A stretch of 53,286 nucleotides of DNA from a virus. Taxonomy: Duplodnaviria > Caudoviricetes. The notes under the pieces were generated by a model. It was not told where the DNA came from. It worked only from the letters and a program-made list of their open reading frames with translations, and made no database searches. This document shows, piece by piece, positions 1 to 32,732 of this stretch; position 1 is the stretch's first letter, and every line of letters starts with the position of its first letter. The position numbers were made by a program, and so were the translations under genes. The stretch lies in the IMG/VR virus record IMGVR_UViG_3300023181_000036, positions 1 to 53,286 of that record; one strand, 5' to 3'.

Positions 1-134
1 GATTGTGGCGGTTGGTGAGTACGTCGGCGTACAGGCGTTTCTTATCTATGCTGGCGCTGCGCTTGTCGGCGGTGCAGTCGCACGGAACAAACAGAAGCGC
101 GCAAACGAGTCGGCAAAGAATGCCTACAACGATT
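1..134 (+). repeat. Terminal direct repeat, left copy (circular overlap)
   Basis: 1-126 is identical to 53155-53280; the right copy then lacks 2 nt (gccta-CA-acgatt vs gccta-acgatt). Confidence 0.95.
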
Positions 135-3028
135 CGCTGACCGCGAAGAATCAAACGTTCCTGTCGTCGGAAGCGCCTTGGCAGATTATCTACGGCGAAC
201 CGCCTCCGGTTGGCGGTGCTATCGTAGCGCACATGGTGAGCGGTGATAGGGACCAATACCAACACGTAGTTATCGTACTTGCTGCGACAGCATTGGAAGA
301 AATTGGCGAAATCTATCTAGACGGCGAGCCTGTTGGTCAGCTTGACAACGACGGCTTTCCGCTCAGTGGTCCTTTCGTTGACAACGTAGATACGAACTAT
401 CGTCAGATTGATGTGACGTTTGACGCAGGCGGCGTTGTTGCTTTGCCGGGTGTGCAGATCACAGGTAACTGCACTATGACCACGATAGACAGTTTCGGAC
501 AACAAACCGTAACTGTGTTGCATTTCTTTTACGAAACGAATGCCAACATTACGCTAGTGTATGGCCCGCCGAATCTGCACACGCTCATTACCTGCAACGC
601 ACGTAACCGTGTGCCGCGTGTTCGTATCTATAAGCACAATAACGCTGACGGTGTAGCGGATACACGCCTGATTGCTGACTGCCCTGGCGAGTGGACTTCA
701 GACCACAAGCTACACGGACGTAGCTACCTTATCATGCGGTTTGATCTGGACTTCAATCGGTTCCAGCAAGGCATGCCGAACGTAACGGCGAAGTGCAAAG
801 GTAAGAAGGGTATCTACGATCCGCGTGACGGGCTGTTGAAGTACACGCGCAACCCTGCGCTGTGCTGGGCAGACTTTGTTTGCAACAAGTATGGCTTTGG
901 CGCAGCATACAGCCAACTCGATATGCCAGCGCTTATCGCAGCGGCGAACGCATGCGACGTAGTTGCGTACCCGGACCTGTCAGGCGATGCGTACTCGTAT
1001 CTGTATAACCTGGGTAACAGCCGCGCGCTGTACACGTGCGATGGCGTATTCAATACAGGTGAGGGCCGCGACAACACGCGCACCGCGCTTGAGCGCAGCA
1101 TGGGCGGCGTAAGCTTTGAATCGGGTGGAGTGTGGGTACTTCGTGCAGGCACATGGTCTACCCCGCTATTCACGCTCAATCCGACCGACCTTCGCGCACC
1201 TGTTGAAATCGTGCAGAGTAGCTACGGGCCGAACGAGCGTGTAAACGGTGCACGCGGACGCTATCTGAACGCGGCTGGCTTGGGGGTGCCTGAAGACGTG
1301 ACGCCGTATCAGAACGCCGTATTCCTTGCCGCTGACGTGAAGGCGAAATGGGCAGACGTGCAAGTTGGTTTCACGACCGGAGCGGTGCGCGCAATTCAAA
1401 TGTTGCGTATGGCTGTTGAAATGTCACGCGGCGGGCAAATCATTCTTGTGTCGCCTCGCATGCTGCATTGGAAAGCGCAACCCGGCGACAGGTTCATTCT
1501 GAATGAGCCAGCGATAAATGTTGCCGCAAAGGTGTACCGTATTCAGGATTGGGCGCATGCACGCGGCAACCCATGCGCGTTCACCGCAATCGAAGACGTG
1601 CCCACAATCTATGACCTGACGAACGAAACAGCGCAAGACCCCGCACCGAACGTTACGCCTGTCAATCCGCGCGACGTAGAAAATCTGCTGTTCGACGGCG
1701 AGCCACAGAGCGGCACCAATTACCTGACGATTCAGGCTGACGGAACTATTGTCACGAACGTGTTCATTCCTATCAAGCCTGCGACACGCCGTAACGTGTT
1801 CAACGGCGGTAACGTCGAAGTCGTATGGCGGCGTACGGATTCTGAAGGTGACGGATGGGTGAACGCGCCAGAAGCGCCCGGTAACGCAACTAGCGTCATG
1901 CTGTCCAACGTACCGGAAGTACCTATCACTATCGGTGCGCGGTTCTCCAACGACCTGAACCTGAAGGGGCACTTCAACTACATCACGCATCAGGTCATCG
2001 GCAAGACCGCGCCGCCGTCTGACATGACGGTGTTGAACATCGACGGCGATACACTGTCCTGGCCCCCGATTACCGACGCCGACCGCGCGGGCTATGTCTT
2101 CCGGTTCCACTACGGACAGAACACCGATTGGGGCACGGCGGCACCCCTGCATACCGAACAGATCGTTTCATCGCCCTACCGCATGATTCAGCGCCCCAGC
2201 GGGCCTGTCACGATCTTGGGCAAGGCCATCGACACGACGGAGCATGTCTCCCTCAACGCCATCCCTGTCTTTACGGACCTGGGAGACGCGCCCGTGGCGA
2301 ACGTGGTAGAGGTCTTCGATTTTGAGGCGATGGGCTGGCCTGGAGTTATCACAGGCGGCTCCATTGTGGGCACGGATATCGTTGCGAACGCGACAGACTC
2401 TTTTTACGGTGCGGATGCGGCGTCGTTCTACGATTCTGACGATACCGCTTCGTTGTATGAAACCGGCACGTATACGCCACTTGTGTACGTGACATCGCAG
2501 GTACTAATCAACAGCGCGCTTGCAGGTTCTTACCTTACCGTGATGCTTGAATCGCTCGGCGCGAACGCTACGGTTGAGTACCAGAAGTCCGGTCCTGAAC
2601 CTTTCTACGGTACAGGTAGCGCGCCCTTCTACGGCGTTGGTCCTGACTCGTTCTACGGCCCTCCTGGCGATTGGTTGCCGTTGCCTGGACAACTACTCGT
2701 TGAGAATGTCGGCTACGCGTTCCGTATCACGATTGGCCCTGGCGCTGTGCAGGGTGTTATCGACAAGTTCTCATTGACGGTTGACGCGCCTGACATCATT
2801 GAAGATATTAGCGATCTGCCGTTGGTTGCGGCAGGTACCGTCGTCCCGTATACGAAACCGTTCACGGTCATCAAGTACGTGTACCCGGCGCTACAGGCAA
2901 ATGGTAGCGGAGCAACACGATTGGGCATCGTCAAAGTAGGCCCCCTGACAACCGTTCTCACCCCTTACAATGCTGCCAACGTCGGCGTGAATGGCGCGAC
3001 CGCAGACGTTCAACTTAAAGGCTACTGA
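5..3028 (+). CDS. Tail tip / central tail hub (lambda J-like host-specificity protein); true start at 53075 across the circular junction
   Basis: Motifs WQIIYGE, KGKKGIYDPR, YTRNPALCWADF and an FN3-like C-terminal part; follows the NlpC-like gene. Confidence 0.85.
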   Translation: MAVGEYVGVQAFLIYAGAALVGGAVARNKQKRANESAKNAYNDSLTAKNQTFLSSEAPWQIIYGEPPPVGGAIVAHMVSGDRDQYQHVVIVLAATALEEIGEIYLDGEPVGQLDNDGFPLSGPFVDNVDTNYRQIDVTFDAGGVVALPGVQITGNCTMTTIDSFGQQTVTVLHFFYETNANITLVYGPPNLHTLITCNARNRVPRVRIYKHNNADGVADTRLIADCPGEWTSDHKLHGRSYLIMRFDLDFNRFQQGMPNVTAKCKGKKGIYDPRDGLLKYTRNPALCWADFVCNKYGFGAAYSQLDMPALIAAANACDVVAYPDLSGDAYSYLYNLGNSRALYTCDGVFNTGEGRDNTRTALERSMGGVSFESGGVWVLRAGTWSTPLFTLNPTDLRAPVEIVQSSYGPNERVNGARGRYLNAAGLGVPEDVTPYQNAVFLAADVKAKWADVQVGFTTGAVRAIQMLRMAVEMSRGGQIILVSPRMLHWKAQPGDRFILNEPAINVAAKVYRIQDWAHARGNPCAFTAIEDVPTIYDLTNETAQDPAPNVTPVNPRDVENLLFDGEPQSGTNYLTIQADGTIVTNVFIPIKPATRRNVFNGGNVEVVWRRTDSEGDGWVNAPEAPGNATSVMLSNVPEVPITIGARFSNDLNLKGHFNYITHQVIGKTAPPSDMTVLNIDGDTLSWPPITDADRAGYVFRFHYGQNTDWGTAAPLHTEQIVSSPYRMIQRPSGPVTILGKAIDTTEHVSLNAIPVFTDLGDAPVANVVEVFDFEAMGWPGVITGGSIVGTDIVANATDSFYGADAASFYDSDDTASLYETGTYTPLVYVTSQVLINSALAGSYLTVMLESLGANATVEYQKSGPEPFYGTGSAPFYGVGPDSFYGPPGDWLPLPGQLLVENVGYAFRITIGPGAVQGVIDKFSLTVDAPDIIEDISDLPLVAAGTVVPYTKPFTVIKYVYPALQANGSGATRLGIVKVGPLTTVLTPYNAANVGVNGATADVQLKGY

Positions 3029-8452: not shown

Positions 8453-8727
8453 CCGTGAAACCCATCAAGACTGCCGTTGCCCGCGCCGCCCAGACAGGCC
8501 CCGTGGCAGCGCAACCGCCTGTAGCACCCTTCACGCTGAAAGAACTCCAGTTCATCGCGGAGTCGCTTGACGCCTTCAACCGGGCCAACGGCTTGCGCGT
8601 GGCTGTGGCCTGCCTCACGGTCATGCAAAAGGTCGAAGCCCTCGCCCAGGCCCAGGGCGGAGAAGAAAACGCCGGGAAGGGGCCGTCTGACACGCCGCAG
8701 GCACCTTCCGGCACGCCCCAAGCCTAG
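8449..8727 (+). CDS. Hypothetical protein (possible fibre chaperone)
   Basis: RBS GAGG, ATGA coupling, last gene of the late operon. Confidence 0.55.
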   Translation: MTVKPIKTAVARAAQTGPVAAQPPVAPFTLKELQFIAESLDAFNRANGLRVAVACLTVMQKVEALAQAQGGEENAGKGPSDTPQAPSGTPQA

Positions 8728-10799
8728 TCAATCGCTCCCCAATTTGCACCCCGGCCAAAATCGACCAAGACCGGGATTTTTATAGAAACGGCGTGTGTCA
8801 TAACATGACGCATATAAGCAAACGCTTCGTTCATTGCAGGATCGTTGCGCATCACACTAAAGACTAATTCATCGTGTACTGTCAGCCGTGGTACACCGAT
8901 GTAGTCAAACACCCCTTCTTTCCAGCACTGCCACATACCGCGTTTCATGTGGTCGCCTTCGGCCATCTGAAGCTTGCGGTTCAGTGCTTTGTGCCCGTAG
9001 GCGCGTTGAATACGCGTACCGTACATCGCCAAAGCACGTTCGTACGGCAAGGCGATCTTGCGTTCTTCCCGGCTGTTGCGCTCGCGGATTGGTTCCCACA
9101 GGTTGAACCGGCTCTTGCGCCCCAGCATGCTCACGATCTGACCGTCCTCCAGGGCCATGCGCGCAAACAGCTTCGTCGTCTCCCGCACGTACGGCGCGCC
9201 CATGTGGTACGCCTTCATGATTTCACGGGCAACGCTCAGTTCTACGCCAAGTTGCCGCGCTAGCTTGTCTTCGCCCATTCCGAAGGCAAGTCCGAAGTTA
9301 ATGTTCTTAATCGGCTTACGTTCAATGTAGCGGCCTGACACATCGTTAACTAACTTCTGTACGATGTCGTGGTAGTCCGTATTGGGGTCTAGGTTGTAAG
9401 CATCGGCCACGGCCTGCGCCCCGTCGCCTACTGCATCGTGTACGAGATAGCGATACTGAATCTGGCTGAAGTCGATCTTCTCGATTTCAACGTCGCCGAA
9501 GTCGTGACGAAAGCACGAACGCATACGCTTGCCCAGGGGTACGTATGTGGGATCGTACAACGGATTGGGCTTGCCTTCTTTCGGCTTGGTCAGTAGTGGT
9601 TCTTCGGTGAATCCAGGTCGCACCGGAATGTTTTGCAGGTTCGGGTCACTGCTTGAATAGCGACCTACGATAGTGCCGCCGTCATCACTGCGTAATTGAT
9701 TGAATGACGCATGAATCTTTCCGTTGGTGTGCCGTTCAAGCAGGTACGACCGTATGAACGTGTTGCGAATCTTTTCGTACATCCGCAGTTCGATAATCTG
9801 CTTACCGATAGGATGCTCTACCTGCTTTAGAAAGTCCTTTGTGAAACTTGGCTTACCTGCGGCAGTCCTCATGTACGGTACGCCGTAATAGTCGAATGCC
9901 TTTGCTACGCTATCACCTGCGTTAACGTTCAGTTCAAAGCCAAGCTGATTCTTTAGCAGCGTATGGAACTTCATAATGTCAAGGCCAAGCTGTGCGTACA
10001 ACTGTTCGACCATCGGCAGATCAATCGTTACGCCCTTGCGCCGCATCGCAACCATGAGACTGATTAGATCACACTCCATACGGTAGATGTTCAATACACC
10101 TTCACGCTCCATCGCAGGCCACTGGTGACGCAGGATGCGGAGTGGCAGATCAACGTCACCTTCACCATAGTGCCCGACAAGGCGGGGTGACGTACGGTAG
10201 ATATTCGCGCGCTGATTGCTATTGGCGGAACCGCCGTAGGCTTCGGCCTGCCAACGGTACATGTCGTCGCTTGTTTTGTTTTCATTGAGGTACTTAACTC
10301 CAAGATGACCAAGGTTAACTTCAGTGTCCTCCGACAACAGGGCTTCGGCAAACTGTACGTCGTGAAGCTCACCCTTGACGTGAATGTTTTCTTCTCCGAG
10401 CCAGCCCACATCGTATGTCAGGTTCGCGCCGACTTTCGGAATGTTCGGTGTGCGCTCCAACGTATCCCGCACGTAGTTGAACACGTGTATTGGGTCAAGG
10501 TTGTACTGTGGTTCGACTTCATGCCGGACAGGAAAGTACCACTTGCCATAGTTGCCGTTGCCGTCGTCAGCGCCGATACCAACGCCTACGATATGGCCCT
10601 TACCGCGCGCCCATCCTGGCCCGTGGTCAAAGTCCGGTTCCCAGGTTTCGCAGTCGAAGCTCAGGAGCTTTGCGGCACTCAGGTTCGGGAAGTGTGTGGG
10701 CGGCAACCATCCCGTATTCGGTGTCGGCGGTAGCTGCTTGAGAACTGCTTTACGACGCAGCGTCAGTGGTTCGTCATCGAAGAATAGAATGTCACTCAC
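8724..10799 (-). CDS. polA: DNA polymerase family A with 3'-5' exonuclease
   Basis: ExoI DCET, ExoII NLTYD, ExoIII YGEGD; SSSDPNLQNIP; motif A DFSQIQYR, motif B KNINFGLAFG, motif C VHDEL. Confidence 0.95.
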   Translation of the reverse strand: MSDILFFDDEPLTLRRKAVLKQLPPTPNTGWLPPTHFPNLSAAKLLSFDCETWEPDFDHGPGWARGKGHIVGVGIGADDGNGNYGKWYFPVRHEVEPQYNLDPIHVFNYVRDTLERTPNIPKVGANLTYDVGWLGEENIHVKGELHDVQFAEALLSEDTEVNLGHLGVKYLNENKTSDDMYRWQAEAYGGSANSNQRANIYRTSPRLVGHYGEGDVDLPLRILRHQWPAMEREGVLNIYRMECDLISLMVAMRRKGVTIDLPMVEQLYAQLGLDIMKFHTLLKNQLGFELNVNAGDSVAKAFDYYGVPYMRTAAGKPSFTKDFLKQVEHPIGKQIIELRMYEKIRNTFIRSYLLERHTNGKIHASFNQLRSDDGGTIVGRYSSSDPNLQNIPVRPGFTEEPLLTKPKEGKPNPLYDPTYVPLGKRMRSCFRHDFGDVEIEKIDFSQIQYRYLVHDAVGDGAQAVADAYNLDPNTDYHDIVQKLVNDVSGRYIERKPIKNINFGLAFGMGEDKLARQLGVELSVAREIMKAYHMGAPYVRETTKLFARMALEDGQIVSMLGRKSRFNLWEPIRERNSREERKIALPYERALAMYGTRIQRAYGHKALNRKLQMAEGDHMKRGMWQCWKEGVFDYIGVPRLTVHDELVFSVMRNDPAMNEAFAYMRHVMTHAVSIKIPVLVDFGRGANWGAID

Positions 10800-11805
10800 C
10801 AGGAATCCTCATGCCAGATACTGCGCCGCGAACGTTCTCGCCGAAGAACAACAAGGGGCTATCGCCCTTGGCGTAGTCGATGGTTTTTGCGATACCTTCA
10901 AGCATCAGCAGATACTCTAGGTTGAATGCTCGCCCCTCCGGTATGCCTTCAAGCTCGTAGCTACCGCCTTCGGTGTTGTTCGTCCTGCTTGTGTGCAACA
11001 GATTACGCGAGAACATAACACACTTGCTGTCTTCGGTAAACGGTTTCAGTACGCGCAACGCGTCGTAGAGTCCGGGTGTTACGGGCCATTGGTCCGATGG
11101 CTTATCTAGGACACGACCAATATCCGGGTACTTGTCAGCGTAAAGCTGCGTCTTGAGCCAGCTACCGTCGCTAAAGTAGAACGTAGCTGTGTTGCCGGAG
11201 TAACCGAACTGCGTCAACGGTTTCTTGATGCCTTCGATAGCCTTGAGCGCGGTCTTAGGGACCAAGATCACCGGCAAATCGATGCCGTGCCAATACTCGA
11301 TCACCACATGCCGGTTGGTCGCGCAGATCGTCTGCGGCCCCAGGCGCGCACAGGCCGTGATGACCGTCTGCGCGTTGTCCGATACCAGGGGCGCGACAGC
11401 CGCCATTCCGGCCCGCAGGCGGTCGTCTATGACGGCCACGGGCGGGTCAGGGAACACCGGGGGCATATCGTTCAGCACATGGCAGGGTACGACGGCCTTG
11501 AACCGCCCCGCCTTGACGCTCAAACCAGATTGCAACTGCGTCATAGCCATCTGGCCTTCGCAGCGTTCTAGGGCCTGGATCAGCCGCTGCGTGTGGGGAG
11601 CAACCGAAATGTCTTCTTCAATCCGATGTCCGGCAGACAGAATGCCGTTGAACGCATACAGCCATGTGCCGTACATGATGCAGTGCCGATGCTGCGGCGG
11701 TCCCGCATCCAACTGTGCTATCTTCACGAACTTCAACGCGTCGAGTAGGTTCAGTTCGTTGCTTGTCGGCTCCGGTTCCGTTTTCTTCGTGCGTTTCGTC
11801 GCCAT
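10792..11805 (-). CDS. Sliding clamp (DNA Pol III beta)-like processivity factor
   Basis: ~337 aa next to the polymerase; ATNRH, KYPDIGRVL, AFNLEYLL and SPLLF...GMR segments resemble beta-clamp motifs. Confidence 0.55.
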   Translation of the reverse strand: MATKRTKKTEPEPTSNELNLLDALKFVKIAQLDAGPPQHRHCIMYGTWLYAFNGILSAGHRIEEDISVAPHTQRLIQALERCEGQMAMTQLQSGLSVKAGRFKAVVPCHVLNDMPPVFPDPPVAVIDDRLRAGMAAVAPLVSDNAQTVITACARLGPQTICATNRHVVIEYWHGIDLPVILVPKTALKAIEGIKKPLTQFGYSGNTATFYFSDGSWLKTQLYADKYPDIGRVLDKPSDQWPVTPGLYDALRVLKPFTEDSKCVMFSRNLLHTSRTNNTEGGSYELEGIPEGRAFNLEYLLMLEGIAKTIDYAKGDSPLLFFGENVRGAVSGMRIPGE

Positions 11806-19896: not shown

Positions 19897-22302
19897 ATGT
19901 TGTTCGACAACATTCCGAGCGAGTTGCGTGTTCTATCGCAATGGGTGACGTGGCGCTTTGAAGACCACGGCGGTGCGAAGCCGACGAAGGTGCCCTACAA
20001 CCCGATAGGCGGCTACAAAGCTAGTCATTCTGACCCGTTCACGTGGACAAGCTTCGACGCTTGCGTGAACGCGGTACATGCGCGGGCCTATGACGGCATT
20101 GGTTTCGTTCTGGCTGAGTCCGACCCGTATGCGTTCATCGATCTTGACGACGTTCACGAAGACCTTGACGCCCAGGCGCGGCAGGTTCGCATCTTTGAAG
20201 CCTTCGACTCGTACGCCGAGATAAGCCCCAGCGGCAAGGGCCTGCACATCATCATCAAAGGCTCCGTTCCGAGCGGACGTAAGCGTGCCTTCGTTGAGGT
20301 ATACAGCACGCTCCGTTTCATGACGATGACAGGCAACGTCTACCGCGCCAAGCCCATCAGCGGCGACTTTAATCCGCTGCTGAATTCACTGTGGGAACAG
20401 ATGGGCGGCAACGCTATCGTGTCTTCGTACGCGGGCGACGTGTACCAAAAAGAAGAAGACATGGCGATAGTGAACAAGGCGCTGAAGGCTGACAACGGCG
20501 ACAAGTTCAACGACCTGATGTGGGGACGCTGGAACCTGCACTATTCGTCACAGTCTGAAGCCGACCTTGCGCTTATCAACATCCTGGCGTTCTATACACA
20601 GCACAAGCCGCAGATCATTCGCTTGTTCCGTCAATCCGGTTTAGGGCAACGGCCAAAGGCACTACGCAACGATTACGTTGACTACATGGTGGCGAAGTCC
20701 TTCGACAGACTGCTACCGCCCGTTGACATCGATGGCATCCGTAACCAGATTGAAGCGCAGCTTGCAGAGCGCCGCGCCAATCCTCCGCCAAATCCCTTCA
20801 ACACGCCTGCGCCAGCACAGCAGCCAGCACGTGATGTGCCTGCGATGCCAAAGCCTGTTGTCGATCATCAGGCACACATCACGAAGACGGAATACCATGT
20901 GTTCGATAACGTGAAACCGTTGAACATGCGTGCCCTCAAGGTCAAGAAATTCGAGTACGTTAAACCGCCTGGGCTCATTGGTGAGATTGCATCGTTCATC
21001 TACGCCGCTGCGCCACGGCCTGTGCCTGAGATTGCGCTGACGGCTGCCCTCGCGCTCATGAGCGGCATCTGTGGCCGTGCGTACAACGTGAGCAATGCGG
21101 GCCTGAATCAATACATCCTCTTGCTTGCTCCTACAGGCTCCGGCAAAGAGGCAATTGCAAGCGGTATCGACAAGCTCATGGCAAGCGTACGCATGACAGT
21201 GCCTGCGGCGGCTGAGTTCATCGGCCCCGCTGAGATTGCATCGCCTGAAGCGCTGCTTAAGTATATGAACTACGCATCGTGTAGCTTCGTGTCAATGATT
21301 GGTGAGTTTGGTCTGAAGCTTAAACAGATGGCAACGCAGAACGCTTCGCCACAGATGGCGGGGCTAAAGCGCATGTTGCTTGACCTGTACAACAAGTCCG
21401 GTGAAGGCAAGTTGCTCCACCCGATGATCTACTCCGACAAGACGAAGAATACCGACATCATCGAAGCGCCTGCGTTCTCTCTCATGGGCGAGTCCGTACC
21501 AGGGCGCTTTTACGAAGTGCTTGACGAAGCCATGATTAGCGAAGGCTTGTTGCCACGGTTTACCATCATCGAATACAACGGCGACAGGCCACCACTGAAC
21601 GAGCGGCATCACGAAGCGGTTCCAAGCGTCAGCCTGATTGAACAAGTCAGTGCGCTGTGCGGGCATGCGCTCATGTTGAACAAAGCTAAAAAAGCGATCA
21701 CAGTTAATCTCGATCCAAACGCGGAAAAGCTTTTCCGTGACTTCGACAAGTATTGCGATGACCGTATTAACAGTGGTAGCAAGGAAGTCGTCAAGCATCT
21801 GTGGAATCGTGCCCACATGAAATCGATGAAGCTCGCGGCCCTCGTTGCTGTGGGCAATAGCCCTTACGACCCCAGGATCAACGGCGAGACGGCACAGTGG
21901 GCGATTGACCTCGTTGTGCATGATGCGATGTCGCTGCTTGAGCGCTTTGAAACCGGCAAGGTAGGCGCTACTGAAAGTTCGGACACGAAGCAGATTGAGG
22001 ATATGGTTTCTGTTATCGGAGCCTATCTAGAAGACCCGCACGACACACTGAAGAAGTACCACGTACCACTCGCATTGCACAGCGAACGTGTCCTGCCCTG
22101 GGGCTATCTGGCGCGGCGTCTGTCGCCTATGACATCGTTCAAGAATGACCGCTTTGGCGCTACCGCAGCGCTGAAGAAATGCGTTCAAGCGTTGGTTGAT
22201 CGTGGTGATTTGCAAGAGCTATCACGCAACGACACAGCCGCAAAATTTAAGACGACAGCTAAATGCTTTGTCATCAGTAATGTGCATGCCTTCTTATCGT
22301 AA
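19897..22302 (+). CDS. Primase-polymerase (NrS-1-like AEP) fused to a DUF3987-type P-loop/helicase domain
   Basis: QWVTWR, IDLDD, SPSGKGLH, SQSEADLAL, APTGSGKE. Confidence 0.88.
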   Translation: MLFDNIPSELRVLSQWVTWRFEDHGGAKPTKVPYNPIGGYKASHSDPFTWTSFDACVNAVHARAYDGIGFVLAESDPYAFIDLDDVHEDLDAQARQVRIFEAFDSYAEISPSGKGLHIIIKGSVPSGRKRAFVEVYSTLRFMTMTGNVYRAKPISGDFNPLLNSLWEQMGGNAIVSSYAGDVYQKEEDMAIVNKALKADNGDKFNDLMWGRWNLHYSSQSEADLALINILAFYTQHKPQIIRLFRQSGLGQRPKALRNDYVDYMVAKSFDRLLPPVDIDGIRNQIEAQLAERRANPPPNPFNTPAPAQQPARDVPAMPKPVVDHQAHITKTEYHVFDNVKPLNMRALKVKKFEYVKPPGLIGEIASFIYAAAPRPVPEIALTAALALMSGICGRAYNVSNAGLNQYILLLAPTGSGKEAIASGIDKLMASVRMTVPAAAEFIGPAEIASPEALLKYMNYASCSFVSMIGEFGLKLKQMATQNASPQMAGLKRMLLDLYNKSGEGKLLHPMIYSDKTKNTDIIEAPAFSLMGESVPGRFYEVLDEAMISEGLLPRFTIIEYNGDRPPLNERHHEAVPSVSLIEQVSALCGHALMLNKAKKAITVNLDPNAEKLFRDFDKYCDDRINSGSKEVVKHLWNRAHMKSMKLAALVAVGNSPYDPRINGETAQWAIDLVVHDAMSLLERFETGKVGATESSDTKQIEDMVSVIGAYLEDPHDTLKKYHVPLALHSERVLPWGYLARRLSPMTSFKNDRFGATAALKKCVQALVDRGDLQELSRNDTAAKFKTTAKCFVISNVHAFLS

Positions 22303-22569
22303 CGATTTGGCGATTTTGCTTTGCCTTTGCGAAAGCTCCGAAAACGCCGGGTACCATTTTTGACGAAAAACGCCTATTAACGTTTTGGGGTACCCCTCGT
22401 GGTTGTGCGGCGCAGCATGCGAGTGCGTAAAAACCACGCGGAAAGACGAGGGTAGATGGGCTAGAATTCCCAGGCCGGGGAGTGCCTTTCCGCCATGCCG
22501 TGCGCAAGGCTGAGAGCTAAGGGGCTGAACCGCCTACATGCCCCGGCAACCCTCCCCACTCAGAATGGC

Positions 22570-22836
22570 TCACGCCGGGCCGGAATCAACCGTTCCGCGC
22601 AGCATAAAACCGTTTAGGTAGGGGGATAGCCTGGGACTGCCTAAAGCGTTCCATGCGTCTTGAGTGACCGGCGCGAAACCTTCAGGCAGATCACGCGCTC
22701 TGCGCTCTGCGCGTAGCGGCGCACTGGTACGGTAGGCGCGTGCGTGCCATGCAAGCCAAAATCCGCCACGTCCAGGACGTTTAGCAAAGCCGCGCCAGCT
22801 ACGCATTAGCAGGCGCTTGCGGTTACGGTTATTCAT
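22570..22836 (-). CDS. Hypothetical basic protein
   Basis: RBS GGAGT. Confidence 0.55.
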   Translation of the reverse strand: MNNRNRKRLLMRSWRGFAKRPGRGGFWLAWHARAYRTSAPLRAERRARDLPEGFAPVTQDAWNALGSPRLSPYLNGFMLRGTVDSGPA

Positions 22837-22855
22837 ATCGGTTACTCCAGTTCAG

Positions 22856-22897
22856 AAAACGCAAAGGGCCGCGCACTCGATATGAATGCGCGGCCCT
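22856..22897 (-). terminator. Rho-independent terminator of the leftward early transcript
   Basis: 11-bp stem AGGGCCGCGCA/TGCGCGGCCCT, then TTGCGTTTT on the - strand. Confidence 0.7.
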
Positions 22898-22947
22898 AGT
22901 CGCTTTCCCATTTAACGTCAGGGGTTGACGTGATGATTATTATTACG

Positions 22948-23169
22948 TTACAAGCGTGGCGGATGTGCGTTTACCGGAAAGCCGCATTCCTTTAGGAACA
23001 TGCCGCTATCAACAGAAAGCTCGCGGGCGAGTTGCTGCGCCAGGGTAATCAAAGCGTTATGCCCGCCGATAGCCTGCGCGTTATCTACGCGCATCATTGC
23101 AACGGCTTTGTACGCTGCAAGGCTATCGCGGATGACATGCGCTAGTGTGGTGTAGTCTGCTTTACGCAT
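22948..23169 (-). CDS. Hypothetical early protein
   Basis: Coupled to the upstream small ORF. Confidence 0.55.
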   Translation of the reverse strand: MRKADYTTLAHVIRDSLAAYKAVAMMRVDNAQAIGGHNALITLAQQLARELSVDSGMFLKECGFPVNAHPPRL

Positions 23170-23311
23170 TGATGGCTTCCACAGTTTCATTCTGCGCGTA
23201 GTAAAACGTGCGCCCATATTTAACGATTAGTGCGGTACGTGTGCTTTTCTTTACGCACACATTACCGTTACAGTAAAAAGACGCGCCGATAGCTATTTCT
23301 GAAAACATCAT
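23162..23311 (-). CDS. 49-aa hypothetical protein (MMFSEIAIGASFYCNGNVCVKKSTRTA...)
   Basis: RBS AGGAG; absent from the ORF track. Confidence 0.6.
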   Translation of the reverse strand: MMFSEIAIGASFYCNGNVCVKKSTRTALIVKYGRTFYYAQNETVEAINA

Positions 23312-23378
23312 GGCATTCTCCTAATGTGGGAACATTCCCGCAGTAGCGCACGTCCAGGCTGCACTACTACTGGCACGC

Positions 23379-23543
23379 TCACGCATGCGAACGCTTGAGA
23401 CGCGGCGCGTAAATGCTGCGCTTGCCTTCACGTGCCATGATGCACAGTGCCTTATGCGCGAGACGTTCGCGGCGCGCCTTGTCGGTTTCTTTCATGGCTT
23501 GCGCCTCAAGGATTGCGACATGGTTTTGCGTTGCTTGGTTCAT
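23379..23543 (-). CDS. Hypothetical early protein
   Basis: RBS GGAGT. Confidence 0.55.
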   Translation of the reverse strand: MNQATQNHVAILEAQAMKETDKARRERLAHKALCIMAREGKRSIYAPRLKRSHA

Positions 23544-23615
23544 TTGGATAACTCCAGGTAAGGGCGACATTGCCCGACATTGCCCACACTATAGGCAATG
23601 GCTGAAAATGTCTGT

Positions 23616-23954
23616 TTAGCTGGCTTCGGGGGATAGCCAATACTCGATAGCTGTGCGCGCTTTGCCTTCGCCACCACAAGCTAGGATGTAATCGAATTGC
23701 TCTAATGCACGTTGCACACTTCCTGTACCTTCCCATGCGGCGTGCATGCGCTGTGCCAGTGCATGGCATGAGTAACCGTTACTGTGAAGGGCTAACGTTG
23801 ACGTGCCACGCGAATGCGTCAACGTTAGTGCATGGGTGTCTAGTTCAGGAATGGCTTTCACTTGAAAGGTTCCATGCTTGCCGGGCATGGGCAATAAAAT
23901 GAACTGGTCACTTGAAGGCAGTACAGAATTGCCGATACGTTTTTGCGTTGCCAT
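23616..23954 (-). CDS. Hypothetical early protein
   Basis: RBS AAGGAG. Confidence 0.6.
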   Translation of the reverse strand: MATQKRIGNSVLPSSDQFILLPMPGKHGTFQVKAIPELDTHALTLTHSRGTSTLALHSNGYSCHALAQRMHAAWEGTGSVQRALEQFDYILACGGEGKARTAIEYWLSPEAS

Positions 23955-23955
23955 G

Positions 23956-24450
23956 TCATGCTCCTTCGTTATTGATTTTGCCGTCGCATGCGAGCGCATG
24001 AAAAACGCATTCACCCAGCGTCTCAGCAGCTTCGGCGTAGGATAGTCCGACATATGCCGACTGCCCGTAGGTGACGTTAAACAGGCGTTTACCGCCTTTG
24101 TTTTGCGCCATCTTGATAGCGAACTGCGGTAAGGCAAAATCTGCGGTTGACGCGGTAACTTCGGCCTTCATTGCGTCTTGCATGTCGCGCAGCCCTGACA
24201 TGTAAACGCCGATGGCTTCAGACAGTTTTGTGGCGCTCACAAAGCCGATGTTTAGTACGTTGCGTTCGCCTCCACTTGTGCACATCTGCACAAGCTGATA
24301 ACCGTCGTATGCGCTATCGATATGGTAGTTGCCTGGGTTTGCCTTATGCACGCCGTCAACGTTGCTGTACGGCTTCGTAGGCGTTTTCATGAGGCGGTTA
24401 AGGTTCTCCACTTGTGTTTCGAGAAAGGCGCGGGTGATACGCTGTGCCAT
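23956..24450 (-). CDS. Hypothetical early protein
   Basis: RBS GGAGT; 164 aa. Confidence 0.7.
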   Translation of the reverse strand: MAQRITRAFLETQVENLNRLMKTPTKPYSNVDGVHKANPGNYHIDSAYDGYQLVQMCTSGGERNVLNIGFVSATKLSEAIGVYMSGLRDMQDAMKAEVTASTADFALPQFAIKMAQNKGGKRLFNVTYGQSAYVGLSYAEAAETLGECVFHALACDGKINNEGA

Positions 24451-24451
24451 G

Positions 24452-24667
24452 TCAGTTACTCCGGTTAAGTTTATCGGTGAGCGCTAGGTTAACGCGATTG
24501 GATTCGATGATTGCGTTTGCATGCTCGCGCACCATGTACTCATGATGGCGCGCAATTGCTGCGTATTGACGGTACTCAGCTTCGCAGCCGTCGCGTTTCA
24601 TTGCGATGGCATTGCGCCGATGGTGTAAAGCACTTTGCAGGTGCTGTGTGATGCGGTCAACTTGCAT
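24452..24667 (-). CDS. Hypothetical early protein
   Basis: Tightly packed ORF. Confidence 0.5.
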   Translation of the reverse strand: MQVDRITQHLQSALHHRRNAIAMKRDGCEAEYRQYAAIARHHEYMVREHANAIIESNRVNLALTDKLNRSN

Positions 24668-24825
24668 CACTTCCCACACTCCAGAGCAAAGAACCAGCAT
24701 GCGACAGGTTCAAACACGTTACCGGCTGCATAGAGCAATCCGGCGCATGCCATCGCGGTAAGAATGAACATTACCGCGCCGCCGATTGCGACTAGCGCTA
24801 CTGCGATGTTGTCCAGGTCGTTCAT
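24667..24825 (-). CDS. Small membrane protein
   Basis: Long hydrophobic segment IAVALVAIGGAVMFILTAMACAGLLYAAG. Confidence 0.5.
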   Translation of the reverse strand: MNDLDNIAVALVAIGGAVMFILTAMACAGLLYAAGNVFEPVACWFFALECGK

Positions 24826-25055
24826 TTTGTGCCTTGGATGGAAACAGCCACTAAGCAGTCTTCGCCATTGGATGCAACTTCGCCAATCAAAAACATTACG
24901 TCCTGTGCAGGGCCTGTAGCGCGGCAATGACCTGGGGATAACTGTATGCCCATAATTATTGCGTTGCACCGCGAGCCTGTACGCTTTTCCATTGCGTTGC
25001 GCATCTTTGCGATACGCAATGCGTCAGCCTTGAAAATTGCAATAAGCTTGTTCAC
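24822..25055 (-). CDS. Hypothetical early protein
   Basis: RBS GGAGT, GTG start. Confidence 0.5.
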   Translation of the reverse strand: MNKLIAIFKADALRIAKMRNAMEKRTGSRCNAIIMGIQLSPGHCRATGPAQDVMFLIGEVASNGEDCLVAVSIQGTK

Positions 25056-25080
25056 TTCATTTACTCCAGGTTATTCGGGG

Positions 25081-25368
25081 TTACGCCTTTACGATTTCGT
25101 TATGAAATCGTTGCGGGACCTTACGCGTAGCGTTGCCGTATGCGTCAGCAAAATGTGAAGGCAGTTTGCCGTTGTCAACATACGCCCATGCGCGCCCGTT
25201 GTCATCGTCACAAACAAGTACAGGCGCAAAATGATGACCTTTACTGCTTTGTGTCGCCAACACTGCTTTAACGCCGTTGTACGACGTTTGAAACGAATGG
25301 TCTATCACATCACCTGTTTTTGTGTGGATTTCTTCTACATCCCATTCATAAGCTACTGCCGTTGCCAT
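25081..25368 (-). CDS. Hypothetical early protein
   Basis: RBS GGAGT; lies just downstream of a promoter. Confidence 0.65.
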   Translation of the reverse strand: MATAVAYEWDVEEIHTKTGDVIDHSFQTSYNGVKAVLATQSSKGHHFAPVLVCDDDNGRAWAYVDNGKLPSHFADAYGNATRKVPQRFHNEIVKA

Positions 25369-25403
25369 CTTGTTTACTCCGTTACGTTTGCTGATCCGAT
25401 AAC

Positions 25404-25434
25404 GTAATGTAGGACATCAAACTACTTTACGCAA
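25404..25434 (-). promoter_or_regulatory. Early promoter copy 1
   Basis: TTGCGT-17-TACATT; shares ATGTCCTACATTAC with 27046-27077. Confidence 0.65.
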
Positions 25435-25474
25435 CTACTTTATTGTAAAGCTTGTGTAAAGCTACGGCACATGA

Positions 25475-25705
25475 CTACGTTATTTTGCTAACGATGTCAT
25501 TGATCGTTTCTTGCCCGCAGTAGATGCGCCCGCTTTTGTGCCACGATTCGCACACGCCGTTAGGGTATATGCCCCGCGCACGGTACGGCGTTATCGTTGT
25601 GACTTCTACCTGAAGCCCTTCGCGCGTCATGTACAGTCCTGGCGCGTCAACGATGACAGGCAGTAAAGGCGAAAAGTACGGCGGGAGAATTTTGGTTGTT
25701 AGCAT
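25475..25705 (-). CDS. Hypothetical early protein
   Basis: RBS AAGGA. Confidence 0.6.
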   Translation of the reverse strand: MLTTKILPPYFSPLLPVIVDAPGLYMTREGLQVEVTTITPYRARGIYPNGVCESWHKSGRIYCGQETINDIVSKIT

Positions 25706-25731
25706 GGTGATTCCTTTGTGAAGTGACTGCG

Positions 25732-26244
25732 TTACGGGAATGCGTAGCCCTTGCCCTTCAGGTACGTTTTAGCGTCTTCCAGTGTGTAGAAGTGCCGACC
25801 GGCTTCGCCAAGTGAATAGCAAATCCAAGGGAGCGATTCAGAGTAATCGGGCCTGTACGTGATCCGTGCGCCGCCCGTCAGGCTGCGCTCTGTGTAGCCA
25901 ATCGGGTAAACCGGGGCGACGGCTGGAGGATTGACCGATTCCAGGCCCTTTTCTGCCTCGGGCAAGGGGTAGGCGGCGCAAAGGTACTCGCGCAGCTTGT
26001 GGGCTGTGGCTGAATCCAAATTGAGCATGATCCGGCGACGTTGCTCTGCGGTCTTGCCTTCGTACCATTCCATTGCGTCAATGGACAGTGAACCATCCTG
26101 GCACTTTGACACTTCAATGTACGCGCCGCCATTGTTGCGCTTTGTGGACCATGATGGCACGTATTGTTTGTCAAGATGGGTAAACGATACGCCAGTGACC
26201 TGACCGTTATATTTTGTGAAGCCTGCGACAGAATAGATTGACAT
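25732..26244 (-). CDS. Hypothetical early protein
   Basis: RBS AAGGA; 170 aa. Confidence 0.65.
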   Translation of the reverse strand: MSIYSVAGFTKYNGQVTGVSFTHLDKQYVPSWSTKRNNGGAYIEVSKCQDGSLSIDAMEWYEGKTAEQRRRIMLNLDSATAHKLREYLCAAYPLPEAEKGLESVNPPAVAPVYPIGYTERSLTGGARITYRPDYSESLPWICYSLGEAGRHFYTLEDAKTYLKGKGYAFP

Positions 26245-26269
26245 GATGTGGTTCCTTTATGTTGGTTGA

Positions 26270-26428
26270 TTACTTACGAATGCGAACGCGTTGCCCTGGC
26301 AGAGCAACGAAGTAGAGAACAAACTCACCGGGTTCCGTCACGCCGTACATACGCGCGGCTTTGATGGCTTCGGTAAGGCCAGCTTGGCGCATGATGCGCT
26401 GAATGTGTTGGATAGTGCCGTAGTTCAT
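26270..26428 (-). CDS. 52-aa hypothetical protein (MNYGTIQHIQRIMRQAG...)
   Basis: RBS GGAGT, ATGA coupling; absent from the ORF track. Confidence 0.55.
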   Translation of the reverse strand: MNYGTIQHIQRIMRQAGLTEAIKAARMYGVTEPGEFVLYFVALPGQRVRIRK

Positions 26429-26628
26429 GCTGTGTACTCCGTTTCGATAGGTTCAATACGAAGCCATTCAAACGTGCATTGGTTAAACGACTTGTACAGG
26501 CCGCATGATGCCGGGCAATCACGCCGATACTCACGCGCTATTTGTTTGCGTGCGGCACCTTTACTTTCGGCGCGCACTGTGTATGTGCTATCACCGACAC
26601 GCGCTGTAAATTCTTGATAGGTCGCCAT
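26425..26628 (-). CDS. Hypothetical early protein
   Basis: RBS AAGG. Confidence 0.55.
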   Translation of the reverse strand: MATYQEFTARVGDSTYTVRAESKGAARKQIAREYRRDCPASCGLYKSFNQCTFEWLRIEPIETEYTA

Positions 26629-26657
26629 GATGGTTAGCCTTTCGATGTTGCCCACAC

Positions 26658-27008
26658 TTAACCGCGAATGCCTGGGAAGGCAGAGTACGCGGCATTGTGG
26701 TAGTTCGCTGCAATCATTGCCATGTCGCATTGATACACCGCACGTGCGGCTGCATTGTCCATTTTCATTGCGATGCTAATGAACGCACTGTACTGCGCGC
26801 CTTCACGGTATGCAACACACAGCGCTTGCAGGGCTTGATCTGCCGCCGTGCGCACCAAACGGCGCGTAAGTGTGGGCTTGTCGTTGCTGATGGTTTGCTC
26901 GTCATGCTCCACGCTTGCAGTACGGCGTTCTTCCCAGATACGTGCGTGCGCTTCCCAATCGTTAGCATCGCGTGCGGCTTGCAGTTCATTGGTAAAGTTG
27001 CGTGTCAT
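26658..27008 (-). CDS. Hypothetical protein, first gene of the leftward early operon
   Basis: RBS AGGA, directly after a promoter. Confidence 0.65.
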   Translation of the reverse strand: MTRNFTNELQAARDANDWEAHARIWEERRTASVEHDEQTISNDKPTLTRRLVRTAADQALQALCVAYREGAQYSAFISIAMKMDNAAARAVYQCDMAMIAANYHNAAYSAFPGIRG

Positions 27009-27045
27009 GATGTGTTCCTGCTGTGTGGTTGGTGTTGCTATGGAT

Positions 27046-27080
27046 GTAATGTAGGACATGACACTACTTCACGTCAAGTA
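27046..27080 (-). promoter_or_regulatory. Early promoter copy 2 with an operator-like inverted repeat
   Basis: TTGACG-18-TACATT; ACTACTT-cacgtc-AAGTAGT overlaps the -35. Confidence 0.7.
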
Positions 27081-27231
27081 GTTCGTTATACAGTGTTGTC
27101 ATATGAAGTGATGGTCTTATACCGTAGTTGCGTGACGTAGCTGTGCTGGAGTCAGTACGTGATAGAGCGTAGACGTGTCGTTTTTACTAAACATATACAA
27201 ATCTTTGTAATTGGGACTTTCTGTCTTTCGA

Positions 27232-27395
27232 TAAGTTGTTGATTTTGTTGGAGAAAGTGAAATATATGGATATAATTTTTTGTGGACCTGGGTTAGGTGG
27301 ATGGTGCCGTCCCAAAAGTAGTACCTTTATATATATATTATTATTATTATTTATATATATATTTATATAGAATACACTTAGAAATCAAGCACTTA
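27232..27395. other. Putative replication origin: pure A/T tract flanked by inverted IHF consensus sites
   Basis: 44-nt A/T-only run at 27326-27369; WATCAANNNNTTR matches at 27232-27244 (-) and 27383-27395 (+). Confidence 0.55.
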
Positions 27396-27506
27396 GAGAA
27401 AAACAGAGAAACCCGCTCCCCCTTAAACGGACGCAGGTATAACTCAATGGAATCGGTACGTTACTGATACGCTTGTTACATTCTTAACACAAATAGGGGT
27501 AGAAAA

Positions 27507-27830
27507 ATGGCTTTCATTCATACGGCAATGCAACTCTCTACTACGCGACGTGAACGCGCCCTGGCACGTAAGCTAAAGATGATGCTGATTGAACGCGGAT
27601 ATACAGTTAAATGGCGTTCTATCGTTGATTTGTATGGTGCGAGATTGTTACCCCTCGACCTTACGGTTAACGATGTACCTGTCTTGGTGCGGTTAGCGCA
27701 TGACACACACGACAGATGGCAGGACGTTGACTACCTGGAGAAGTACCCGAATGCCTTCATACAGCGCGGCATCACGGACATTGCACCATTGTGTGGGCAC
27801 ATCGCTACGGTAACAGGCGTACCGCAGTGA
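27507..27830 (+). CDS. Hypothetical protein, possibly a degenerate DUF559/Vsr-like fold
   Basis: RBS AGGGGT; T..ERAL..L...GY..LDL pattern. Confidence 0.5.
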   Translation: MAFIHTAMQLSTTRRERALARKLKMMLIERGYTVKWRSIVDLYGARLLPLDLTVNDVPVLVRLAHDTHDRWQDVDYLEKYPNAFIQRGITDIAPLCGHIATVTGVPQ

Positions 27831-27831
27831 G

Positions 27832-27956
27832 TTATCCACAAGCAGTATTACATGGTGCTTAAACAATAGGCATCATGCCGTATTTATGTGTACTATCGTA
27901 TGCTGCGAAGTTAACATAATGGTCATTGTATGATGCACAGAACGTAGTTATCCACA
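27832..27956 (+). promoter_or_regulatory. Two perfect DnaA boxes flanking Fis-like and dif-like sites
   Basis: TTATCCACA at 27832-27840 and 27948-27956. Confidence 0.6.
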
Positions 27957-28193
27957 GTTTGTGGTATTCTGTACTACATATCACGCATCGTATGACGTAG
28001 TTGAATGTTGTAGTGCCGTGCCTGGGGCTGCGAGACGTAGCTATATGACGAAGGGGGTATAGGGATGCCGGGGGAGGGGGTAGGGGGTGCGTCGGAGGCC
28101 AACCATATACTTCCCCAGCCCCTAAAATCCTCCCGTATCACTACACCGCACCCCAGAACCCCCACCCAACCCAAAAATAGTTACCGTACTCTA

Positions 28194-28221
28194 TTGACAC
28201 TAGCTTTAATTGCTGTAATAT
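28194..28221 (+). promoter_or_regulatory. Rightward sigma70-like promoter
   Basis: TTGACA-16-TAATAT. Confidence 0.55.
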
Positions 28222-28521
28222 TGACCGTATTAGAGGAACCATAATGCTCTTTCCGCCAGCAACAACCGTAGTGCATCGCAGTCAACCACATGACGTGTAT
28301 ATTGGCCGTCCGTCCAAATGGGGCAATCCTTTCCTACTGCGTAATGAGGCTGATCGTGCCGCAGTCATCCATCAGTATGAGGAATGGCTGCGCACGCAAC
28401 CGAACCTTCTCGCCGATTTGCACGAACTGAAAGGTAAACGCCTGGGTTGCTGGTGTAAACCTTCCGCATGTCATGGTGATGTACTTGCAAGACTCGCCGA
28501 CATGACGTAATATTGACCGTA
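28215..28521 (+). repeat. 15-bp direct repeat GTAATATTGACCGTA flanking the DUF4326 gene
   Basis: Exact copies at 28215-28229 and 28507-28521. Confidence 0.85.
28244..28510 (+). CDS. DUF4326 domain protein
   Basis: DVYIGRPSKWGNPF...LKGKRLGCWCKP..CHGDVL. Confidence 0.9.
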   Translation: MLFPPATTVVHRSQPHDVYIGRPSKWGNPFLLRNEADRAAVIHQYEEWLRTQPNLLADLHELKGKRLGCWCKPSACHGDVLARLADMT

Positions 28522-28548
28522 CTTACTTGACCATATGAAAGGTTCCAC

Positions 28549-28725
28549 ATGCGCCTTGAACACTACAAAGCCCAAATCGAAATGAACGCCTCACCTATCG
28601 TAGTGCGTACTGACGTTCCTGAAGGCGGCTGCGTACGCTTGCTACTGGACGACGGAACTGTCATACTGTTCAAGGTAAGCGAATGGGGCAGCGTTGAAAT
28701 CCATCCGCATTACAAGACGCTTTGA
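28549..28725 (+). CDS. 58-aa hypothetical protein
   Basis: RBS AAGGT; absent from the ORF track. Confidence 0.55.
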   Translation: MRLEHYKAQIEMNASPIVVRTDVPEGGCVRLLLDDGTVILFKVSEWGSVEIHPHYKTL

Positions 28726-28765
28726 TACACCCCGCCCCACTGTGGGCAACAACTAAGGAGTAGCC

Positions 28766-29032
28766 ATGCTGACACGTAAACAGTTCATTCGTAATTCGAT
28801 TCTTCTCAGCGTTGCGCAAATCGTAACGCTGCCTATCTGGCTTCCTGTGCTGTTTGTCGTTGTGTTAATCGCGTATGTCGTCGCGTTTATCGGAGAAACG
28901 TACAAAAGCTACATGCAGACTGTCAACGACAAGTACGCCATGCAGCAGGCCAAGGTCAACGCGTGGTTGTGGTATACACTGCGCGAGAATCCCCAGGCGT
29001 TCTACAGTGCTTCGGGGATGAAGGGGTCGTAA
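28766..29032 (+). CDS. Membrane protein
   Basis: RBS AAGGAG; long hydrophobic segment. Confidence 0.65.
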   Translation: MLTRKQFIRNSILLSVAQIVTLPIWLPVLFVVVLIAYVVAFIGETYKSYMQTVNDKYAMQQAKVNAWLWYTLRENPQAFYSASGMKGS

Positions 29033-29061
29033 CCATTTTCTTCAACTGTTAAGGAGTAACC

Positions 29062-29328: not shown

Positions 29329-29330
29329 CC

Positions 29331-29978: not shown

Positions 29979-30034
29979 ATTCCCACGCCGCCAAAACAGG
30001 CGGTATATAATCTTTGCACACTACTGGAGAACAC

Positions 30035-30886: not shown

Positions 30887-30901
30887 CTTAAAGGAGCTTA
30901 T

Positions 30902-31477: not shown

Positions 31478-31480
31478 CGC

Positions 31481-32728: not shown

Positions 32729-32732
32729 TACC

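Follow-up and report, generated by a model that had tools for sequence, protein, structure and literature searches.

A family A DNA polymerase of a tailed phage with Gln and Phe at the E710 and Y766 positions, and the recurrence of this state among its homologues

Hohlbein et al. (PMC3715850) describe the steric-gate glutamate of motif A (E710 in the Klenow fragment) and the tyrosine that ends the O-helix (Y766) as universally conserved in A-family DNA polymerases, and the tyrosine is called 'otherwise strictly conserved' in the literature on DpoZ (PMC8599892, PMC10201439), the family A polymerase associated with 2-aminoadenine. We analysed the family A polymerase gene in the IMG/VR virus record IMGVR_UViG_3300023181_000036 (Duplodnaviria; Caudoviricetes), a stretch of 53,286 bases that is the whole record, has a completeness rating of 100% and is referred to here as the window. 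Both residues are replaced in this polymerase, E710 by Gln (Q448) and Y766 by Phe (F506), and a new glutamate (E614) is found at the position of A852 in motif 6.

Substitutions at the two positions have been characterised in the Klenow fragment (PMC3715850). E710Q has a mutator phenotype, incorporates at a low rate and binds the correct deoxyribonucleoside triphosphate poorly (dNTP; Kd1 of 120 versus 5.1 µM), and it rarely attains the closed complex with the correct dNTP (K2 of 0.52 versus 6.1 in the wild type; Table 1 of that paper). It handles ribonucleoside triphosphates (rNTPs) no better, as the K2 with A-rUTP is 0.056 versus 0.083. Y766F is wild-type-like. Passages of two further papers (PMC4256020, PMC12756729) describe only the Glu-Tyr bond for the neighbours of E710. 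Phe at the Y766 position is the only substitution common to both DpoZ clades, and Czernecki et al. (2021, 2023; PMC8599892, PMC10201439) regard the change from Tyr to Phe as unlikely to determine base specificity. The literature searched, including passages of PMC10201439, PMC8599892 and PMC13697223, yielded no family A polymerase reported to have Gln or His as its natural gate residue; the figures and supplements of these papers could show minor variants.

Pocket residues and their covariation

The best match among the PDB sequences was to Klenow fragment chains (E 6e-35), and in the HMMER alignment 'idfsqiqyr' lies opposite 'adysqielr', 'rkpikninfglafg' opposite 'rrsakainfgliyg' and 'alnrklqmaegd' opposite 'ainapmqgtaad'. 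Klenow E710 corresponds to Q448 (CAG, 9456-9458), Y766 to F506 (TTC, 9282-9284), and G850-T851-A852-A853 to M612-A613-E614-G615, with E614 encoded by GAA at 8958-8960. The motifs quoted in a first-pass annotation of the sequence (IDFSQIQYR, RKPIKNINFGLAFG, ALNRKLQMAEGD and LTVHDELVF) are present, its assignment of the E710 and Y766 equivalents agrees with the Klenow alignment and the codons, and the span from 8953 to 9474 that it gave covers motif A through the AEGD segment by codon position. The equivalents of D705, D882, E883, R754, K758 and F762 are retained (D443, D643, E644, R494, K498 and F502, respectively), as are Q611, H642 and the motif LTVHDELVF, while the steric-gate Glu and the O-helix-end Tyr are absent. 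The catalytic aspartates and the Exo I-III motifs, which had been described as intact, were found to be so (D443, D643, D49, E51, D130, Y211 and D215). Tyr at the L711 position is the norm of the subfamily (DYSQIEYR) and not part of the anomaly; M612 and A505 are specific to the window's clade. Within this clade of nine proteins, which come from different metagenomes and share 57-74% identity, the columns of Q448, F506, E614 and G615 do not vary.

A MAFFT alignment of 268 homologues was scored for the E710/Y766/A852 states, giving EYA 202, EYS 19, QFE 17, EFG 6, EYN 5, EFA 3, HYE 3, HNE 1 and 12 others, all 12 with a Glu gate. The Gln gate was accompanied by both Phe766 and Glu852 in 17 of 17 proteins and the His gate by Glu852 in four of four, whereas none of the 247 Glu-gate proteins has Glu852. 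The same distribution was observed in 80 IMG/VR loci typed by tblastn mapping (Glu852 in 20/20 non-Glu gates versus 0/60 Glu gates), in 115 de-duplicated contigs of which 112 were scorable (23/23 versus 0/89), and in a set of 115 proteins comprising P0221, which is another Gln-type protein, the 113 proteins retrieved when it served as the query, and P0225 (25/25 versus 0/89, with one more row, P0366, being misaligned). A pooled alignment containing 492 of 501 sequences (the 268 first aligned and 224 scorable additions) has Glu852 in 33/33 Gln, 35/35 His and 0/424 Glu gates, and Phe766 in all 33 Gln-gate proteins; these counts are of non-identical sequences and not of independent events. With blastp mapping, 23 of the 501 could not be scored because of inteins, truncations or misalignment, and a few assignments in motif B were displaced; the MAFFT table is preferred. 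About eight Gln and three His types occur among the best 150 of the 50%-identity cluster representatives, and five Gln and 18 His types among the 115 IMG/VR contigs; the sampling was centred on the window's relatives, hence these frequencies are not population estimates.

In these alignments the gate Glu was never lost without the gain of a new Glu three residues past the minor-groove Gln of motif 6, and the Gln gate was accompanied by loss of the Tyr hydroxyl, usually also by loss of the Ser/Thr hydroxyl in the Thr-Gly-Arg (TGR) motif, at the position two residues ahead of the minor-groove Arg. The rule was established within this polymerase subfamily. The proposal that three distant changes had co-evolved is borne out more strongly than it was put, since no exceptions were found in 492 homologues, independent lineages are involved and a fourth site (V378) takes part. 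The Glu of the AEGD segment, suggested as a replacement for the lost gate Glu, is an obligatory partner of that loss (68/68 non-Glu gates versus 0/424 canonical). The view that E710 and Y766 are both near-invariant needs correcting for Y766, as Phe alone was found in 11 of the 247 canonical-gate homologues.

The fourth site was found by comparing columns. Between the six variant lineages and their canonical sisters, five of the 691 columns differ in all six comparisons, and only 448 and 614 change to the same kind of residue. When the 691 columns were ranked by their mutual information with the gate state, positions 614, 378, 615, 612 and 506 came first. Position 378 is Ser in 162, Thr in 70 and another residue in 15 of the 247 canonical proteins; Val378 was observed in 16 of the 21 variants and in none of the 247 canonical proteins of the 268 set (1/410 Glu-gate proteins by blastp mapping). 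Its codon (9666-9668) lies outside the region marked in the first-pass annotation. The A853 position, also by blastp mapping, is Gly in 30 of 33 Gln types and Pro in 34 of 35 His types.

Several rare states were seen in the same alignments. A Glu gate with Asn at both Y766 and A852 (ENN) occurs in P0154 and its kin, the sister of the Gln-type P0128, and a His gate with Asn at Y766 (HNE) occurs in P0077. Five proteins (P0121, P0076, P0070, P0091 and P0119) with the sequence QGSGGD have a Glu gate and already carry Phe766 and Gly-Gly at A852/A853. These QGSGGD-type proteins may be intermediates toward the Gln/Phe/Glu state, a similar set being sister to one Gln lineage. Many homologues (P0060, P0121, P0125, P0132, P0148, P0149, P0317, P0347 and others) have lengths of 840-1280 aa, and their match to the query is interrupted near query residues 382-395, just ahead of DPNLQNIP, or within motif B, and some of the long homologues have intein Pfam domains (PF14890). 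The subfamily is a frequent intein host.

Origins of the Gln type

The Gln type was placed in five positions, each with canonical sisters, in a FastTree phylogeny of the 268 sequences that kept the trait columns. The IQ-TREE phylogeny (LG+C20 posterior mean site frequency model, 72 rows, 604 columns) was calculated with the segments of motifs A, B and 6 removed. It groups the window's clade with the canonical sister P0011 (Shimodaira-Hasegawa-like approximate likelihood ratio, SH-aLRT, 99), the Gln lineage P0128 with canonical P0154 (99), P0186 with canonical P0211 and P0215 (99) and P0221 with canonical P0225 (100), whereas the P0143 group falls inside an eight-row set with canonical members (support 90). 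The P0221 lineage is backed by five further Gln-type relatives with canonical sisters.

A single Gln clade was rejected by the approximately unbiased (AU) test on 28 of the 72 rows, which represent each of the five Gln lineages, the sister groups and the backbone (log-likelihood difference 514, p = 9e-65). The C-terminal 216 columns alone also reject it (difference 115, p = 2e-95), from which we conclude that a transferred palm segment is not the cause of the common states; the candidate explanation of a shared recombined palm-fingers segment was rejected on this result. In a FastTree phylogeny of 486 rows, with the TGR segment also removed, the Gln types form eight groups (10, 1, 3, 2, 6, 1, 1 and 9 members) and the His types one group (35 members), with nine Fitch changes, although some of the eight Gln groups may merge in a better tree. 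On these phylogenies we claim at least five origins for the Gln type.

All six independent contrasts for the new Glu (five Gln, one His) were concordant (sign test, p = 0.031), and the five contrasts of Gln with Phe were essentially all concordant. Two Gln groups have sisters that carry Phe766 already (EFA in one case and a group of EFG, EFC and EYS in the other). Because of these sisters, and of the canonical proteins with Phe766 counted above, the change from Tyr to Phe may have been a permissive first step.

The gene, its replication module and the genome

The coordinates of the polymerase gene, its motifs and the neighbouring clamp gene are collected in Table 1. The sequence AGGA lies 6 nt ahead of the GTG start. 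The clamp gene upstream ends 8 nt into the polymerase gene, and the two are probably translationally coupled. Both Pfam matches exceed their cut-offs (DNA_pol_A PF00476, 157.5 bits against 34.3; DNA_pol_A_exo1 PF01612, 28.1 bits against 23.6), placing the protein in family A (Pol I-like, with a 3'-5' exonuclease), and the PHROGs assignment is phrog_17, DNA polymerase. The acidic and Tyr residues of Exo I-III are all present, in columns that are at least 90% conserved (117 sequences). The reading frame is open through 691 codons with every catalytic residue present, and no second DNA polymerase was identified by Pfam and PHROGs among the 30 window open reading frames (ORFs) scanned. The insertion after NIPVR is not part of the pocket rewiring, because the consensus of the Gln-type P0143 group also lacks it.

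Table 1. Features of the polymerase locus (positions in the window)
Feature	Position	Strand	Evidence or remark
Family A DNA polymerase gene, 691 aa, GTG start	8724..10799	-	PF00476, PF01612, phrog_17
3'-5' exonuclease domain: D49, E51 (Exo I), D130 (Exo II), Y211, D215 (Exo III)	10137..10667	-	Pfam, alignment
TGR motif, reads V378-G379-R380 (Klenow T666-G667-R668), Val for the usual Ser/Thr	9660..9668	-	alignment, codons
Insertion of about 25-28 residues after NIPVR (residues 395-422)	9534..9617	-	present in own clade, absent from family consensus
Motif A, DFSQIQYR: catalytic D443; Q448 for steric-gate Glu (E710)	9450..9473	-	alignment, codons
Motif B (O-helix), RKPIKNINFGLAFG: R494, K498, F502 retained; F506 for Y766	9279..9320	-	alignment, codons
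Motif 6 (start of helix Q), ALNRKLQMAEGD: Q611 (Q849) retained; E614 for A852; G615 for A853; M612 for G850	8952..8987	-	
Motif C, VHDE: H642, D643, E644, canonical	8868..8879	-	alignment, codons
DnaN-like polymerase processivity factor (clamp), directly upstream of the polymerase	10792..11805	-	phrog_947, E 6.6e-59

With the DnaN-like gene directly beside the polymerase gene, the locus belongs to the PolA-plus-clamp replication modules (phrog_17 with phrog_947); a clamp homologue was found in 81/81 loci of a first locus set and in 93/116 loci of a second. Beyond the clamp, on the same strand, lie genes for a superfamily 2 (SF2) helicase, a Cas4-like exonuclease, a DUF669 protein resembling single-stranded DNA-binding (SSB) proteins, a Sak4-like ATPase, DUF7173 and a dUTPase, and the opposite strand carries an NrS-1-like primase-polymerase. 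From the ORF, the domain matches, the replication-gene neighbours and the complete record, we take the polymerase to be the replicase of a tailed phage. A 1008-codon frame at positions 1-3028 (+) extends past the first base, so the record was cut inside a large gene of the structural region, as in a permuted or arbitrarily opened genome.

The primase-polymerase (19897-22302, +) is an 801-aa protein that combines an NrS-1-type helix-bundle domain with a helicase-like DUF3987 part (phrog_3022, E 4.6e-243); its homologue cluster is present in 11 His-type and nine canonical loci. A 327-aa protein at 33814-34797 (+) matches phrog_6247, 'DNA topoisomerase' (E 1.4e-100), and had no Pfam match at E <= 0.01. 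The early region (22300-33000) consists of a long series of short ORFs, of which those scanned matched neither Pfam nor PHROGs, and the G+C fraction falls to 0.47 at 26001-28000 against about 0.55 elsewhere. A tRNA scan of the whole window found no tRNA genes.

The complete 53,286-base record was searched in six frames for PF00709 (PurA/PurZ) without a match, while the control genomes gave 14/14 above the cut-off; the absence of purZ noted at the outset is thereby upheld. No recognisable base-modification gene was found among 30 window ORFs compared with Pfam and 20 with PHROGs, scans that covered ORFs of 100 aa or more in the replication and early regions. Their full yield was the dUTPase, which is the sole nucleotide-metabolism enzyme, the helicase, the Cas4-like nuclease, the DUF669 SSB-like protein, the Sak4-like ATPase, a VRR-NUC protein, DUF7173, DUF7303 and the primase-polymerase. 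All-against-all clustering of ORFs within about 10 kb on each side of the polymerase, in 81 and then in 116 loci, gave no accessory gene that tracks the Gln or His state across lineages. Two clusters are His-enriched, cluster 21, whose listed members are large proteins of about 630-1290 aa, and cluster 19, with proteins of about 270-320 aa, and neither occurs in any Gln-type locus. The annotated genome of the His-type Paracoccus phage has no modification enzyme, a MazG and a small HD protein being all that is listed. No evidence from gene content points to modified nucleotides, and the altered sugar, base or fidelity behaviour suggested at the outset is a hypothetical property.

Interpretation of the pocket and relation to known polymerases

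Our preferred reading, to which we give a probability of about 0.6, is that the gene encodes a functional, replicative and proofreading family A polymerase, assisted by the clamp, in which a buried carboxylate of the sugar pocket has been relocated with compensation. In the canonical pocket, the buried carboxylate of E710 is hydrogen-bonded by the hydroxyl of Tyr766, and probably also by the Ser/Thr hydroxyl of the TGR motif. In the variant, the gate Glu is exchanged for the isosteric and neutral Gln, which would retain the steric block to the 2'-hydroxyl, and the two hydroxyl donors are exchanged for the hydrophobic isosteres Phe and Val. A new carboxylate would be supplied from the first turn of helix Q (A852 to Glu), and its probable partner is the amide of the Gln or the ring of the His. 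The residue after the new Glu is Gly, which would give space, with Gly or Pro adjusting the start of the helix. From the isostery of Gln and the new Glu of helix Q, it would follow that the net charge and the 2'-hydroxyl block are kept while the carboxylate is moved. The first-pass annotation had considered the steric gate to be lost; because Gln is isosteric with Glu, the gate itself is probably kept and it is the carboxylate that would move.

On this model the new Glu, Phe and Val would act as built-in suppressors of the defect that makes E710Q Klenow slow and error-prone. The four sites are predicted to be in spatial contact as one cluster behind the sugar of the incoming nucleotide, where a Gln-Glu pair would take the place of the Glu-Tyr pair, and the enzyme would be expected to remain accurate and dNTP-specific. 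Taken as a whole, the initial interpretation of the locus is partly supported.

Several points weigh against the relocation model. The Klenow residues R668, F762 and Q849 are known to contact the primer terminus or the dNTP, and we infer the contact of 378, 448, 506 and 614 with one another only from their covariation and from their distance of two to four residues to these three. Val378 is not universal, as the P0221 lineage retains Thr, which is found in 10 of 33 Gln types; position 378 is for this reason a frequent and not an obligatory partner. A sign test on six pairs cannot go below p = 0.031, and the groups used in the AU test were named after the first tree had been seen. That several lineages converged on one multi-site state points to positive selection for some property, which neutral 'compensated drift' leaves unexplained.

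This last point leads to an adaptive alternative, that the Gln/Phe/Glu and His/Glu-Pro pockets were repeatedly selected for changed substrate choice. Such polymerases might accept or exclude a non-canonical nucleotide with a modified base or sugar, as with DpoZ and 2-aminoadenine, or might resist a host defence acting through nucleotide analogues or skewed pools. A three- to four-site state that arose at least five times is more like selection than drift, Phe at Y766 is the one substitution common to both DpoZ clades (PMC10201439, PMC8599892), and the many early ORFs of the window with no family match leave room for an unrecognised pathway. We nevertheless consider this explanation unlikely, given the absence of a PF00709 match in six frames of the complete record, the dUTPase as the only nucleotide-metabolism enzyme among the scanned ORFs, the lack of any protein cluster within about 10 kb on each side that tracks the Gln or His state, and the annotation of the His-type Paracoccus phage, which has no modification enzyme; Czernecki et al. 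moreover consider the change from Tyr to Phe an unlikely determinant of base specificity. It is rather doubtful as well that the Gln/Phe/Val/Glu and His/Val/Glu-Pro pockets mark a repeatedly selected and functionally distinct class of replicases, in which moving the charge away from the sugar alters the nucleotides accepted. Such a class might exclude a host-made chain terminator or a damaged dNTP, or it might use a dNTP whose sugar or base is modified by the products of unrecognised genes; if true, it would join DpoZ as the second natural example of a family A polymerase adjusted to an unusual nucleotide economy.

Loss of the Glu-Tyr pair could instead have relaxed the enzyme, lowering its fidelity or sugar discrimination, with a higher mutation rate or some incorporation of ribonucleotides as the outcome. 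The mutator behaviour of Klenow E710Q and its low K2 (0.52 versus 6.1; PMC3715850) are in favour of this, whereas the same substitution gave no gain with rNTPs (PMC3715850), the proofreading domain is intact, and cultured phages with such enzymes maintain genomes of 42-54 kb. The partner changes, free of exceptions and invariant at 57-74% identity, resemble compensation and not decay, and we regard a relaxed polymerase as quite improbable. An artefact, whether a sequencing or assembly error or a decaying gene, is practically out of the question, and no point in its favour was found. The first-pass annotation had already argued against sequencing error, and the same states were indeed observed in 33 non-identical proteins from several data sources, including an invariant set of columns in the nine-protein clade, and in five other IMG/VR contigs. 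This recurrence, the 691-codon open frame with all catalytic residues, and the standing of this gene as the only DNA polymerase identified among the scanned ORFs of a record rated 100% complete together refute it.

An ordinary enzyme family here contains a recurrent alternative wiring of two textbook residues that apparently has not been described. E710 and Y766 are the fidelity-checkpoint residues of Pol I, and they are here replaced together, with the same partners, several times independently. The variants provide a ready-made set of candidate suppressors for the E710Q defect (A852E, A853G, Y766F and T666V) that is testable by mutagenesis in Klenow, KlenTaq and Bst, and bears on closed-complex stabilisation and sugar selection, and they offer polymerase engineers new scaffolds. 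The combination of Q or H in motif A with a motif 6 Glu also provides a simple signature for sorting metagenomic PolA sequences, and would be a marker of phages with unrecognised nucleotide biology if the pocket alters substrate choice.

Among known systems, DpoZ shares with the window polymerase the Phe at motif B position B4 (Y766), which is F506 here. The polymerase of Vibrio phage VP5, a DpoZ, was observed to have Phe at Y766 and, unlike the window polymerase, to retain the gate Glu (DMASFEVR). DpoZ genomes carry purZ and the window does not, and the window polymerase lies outside the phiVC8-like/Wayne-like cluster, the VP5 polymerase having 24% identity over 58% of the query. The nearest relatives of the window polymerase are the canonical polymerases of clamp-bearing phages. 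The nearest named one is the PolA of Variovorax phage VPv64 (47.8% identical across 99% of the query), which belongs to the same subfamily as do those of Stenotrophomonas phage ply2008005c and Pseudomonas phage PSASB_03; all three differ from the window in their canonical SGR, DYSQIEYR, LIYG and QGSAAD motifs, and the two annotated records of this group show a clamp gene upstream of the polymerase gene. Vibrio phage VpKK5, from Queuovirinae, a subfamily associated with 7-deazaguanine, also has a canonical-pocket polymerase of the clamp-linked subfamily. Membership of the subfamily alone does not predict DNA modification.

A total of 16 named phages were typed, of which 11 are fully canonical, three are His-type and none is Gln-type; Epa38 could not be aligned at motif A, nor VP5 at motif 6. 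No cultured Gln-type phage was found for four other Gln lineages either, the best matches of which in the phage database have at most 45% identity. The three with the His/Val/Tyr/Glu-Pro pocket are Paracoccus phage vB_PmaS-R3 and Sphingomonas phages Birtae and Kimi, and since they are cultured, such enzymes replicate genomes, which in these phages are 42-54 kb in size. Their polymerases resemble that of the window in the replaced gate Glu, the Val of the TGR motif and the Glu at A852, and differ from it in having His and not Gln at the gate, in retaining Tyr766 and in having Pro and not Gly after the new Glu. The vB_PmaS-R3 enzyme belongs to the same subfamily (about 45% identity), and its replication module is syntenic with that of the window (polymerase, clamp, helicase, exonuclease, ATPase and primase).

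The Klenow fragment finally shares the fold and the motifs with the window polymerase, which differs from it in lacking a 5'-nuclease domain, in having a clamp gene as a partner, and in carrying the equivalents of A852E, A853G and T666V. Q448 and F506 are the natural counterparts of the laboratory substitutions E710Q and Y766F.

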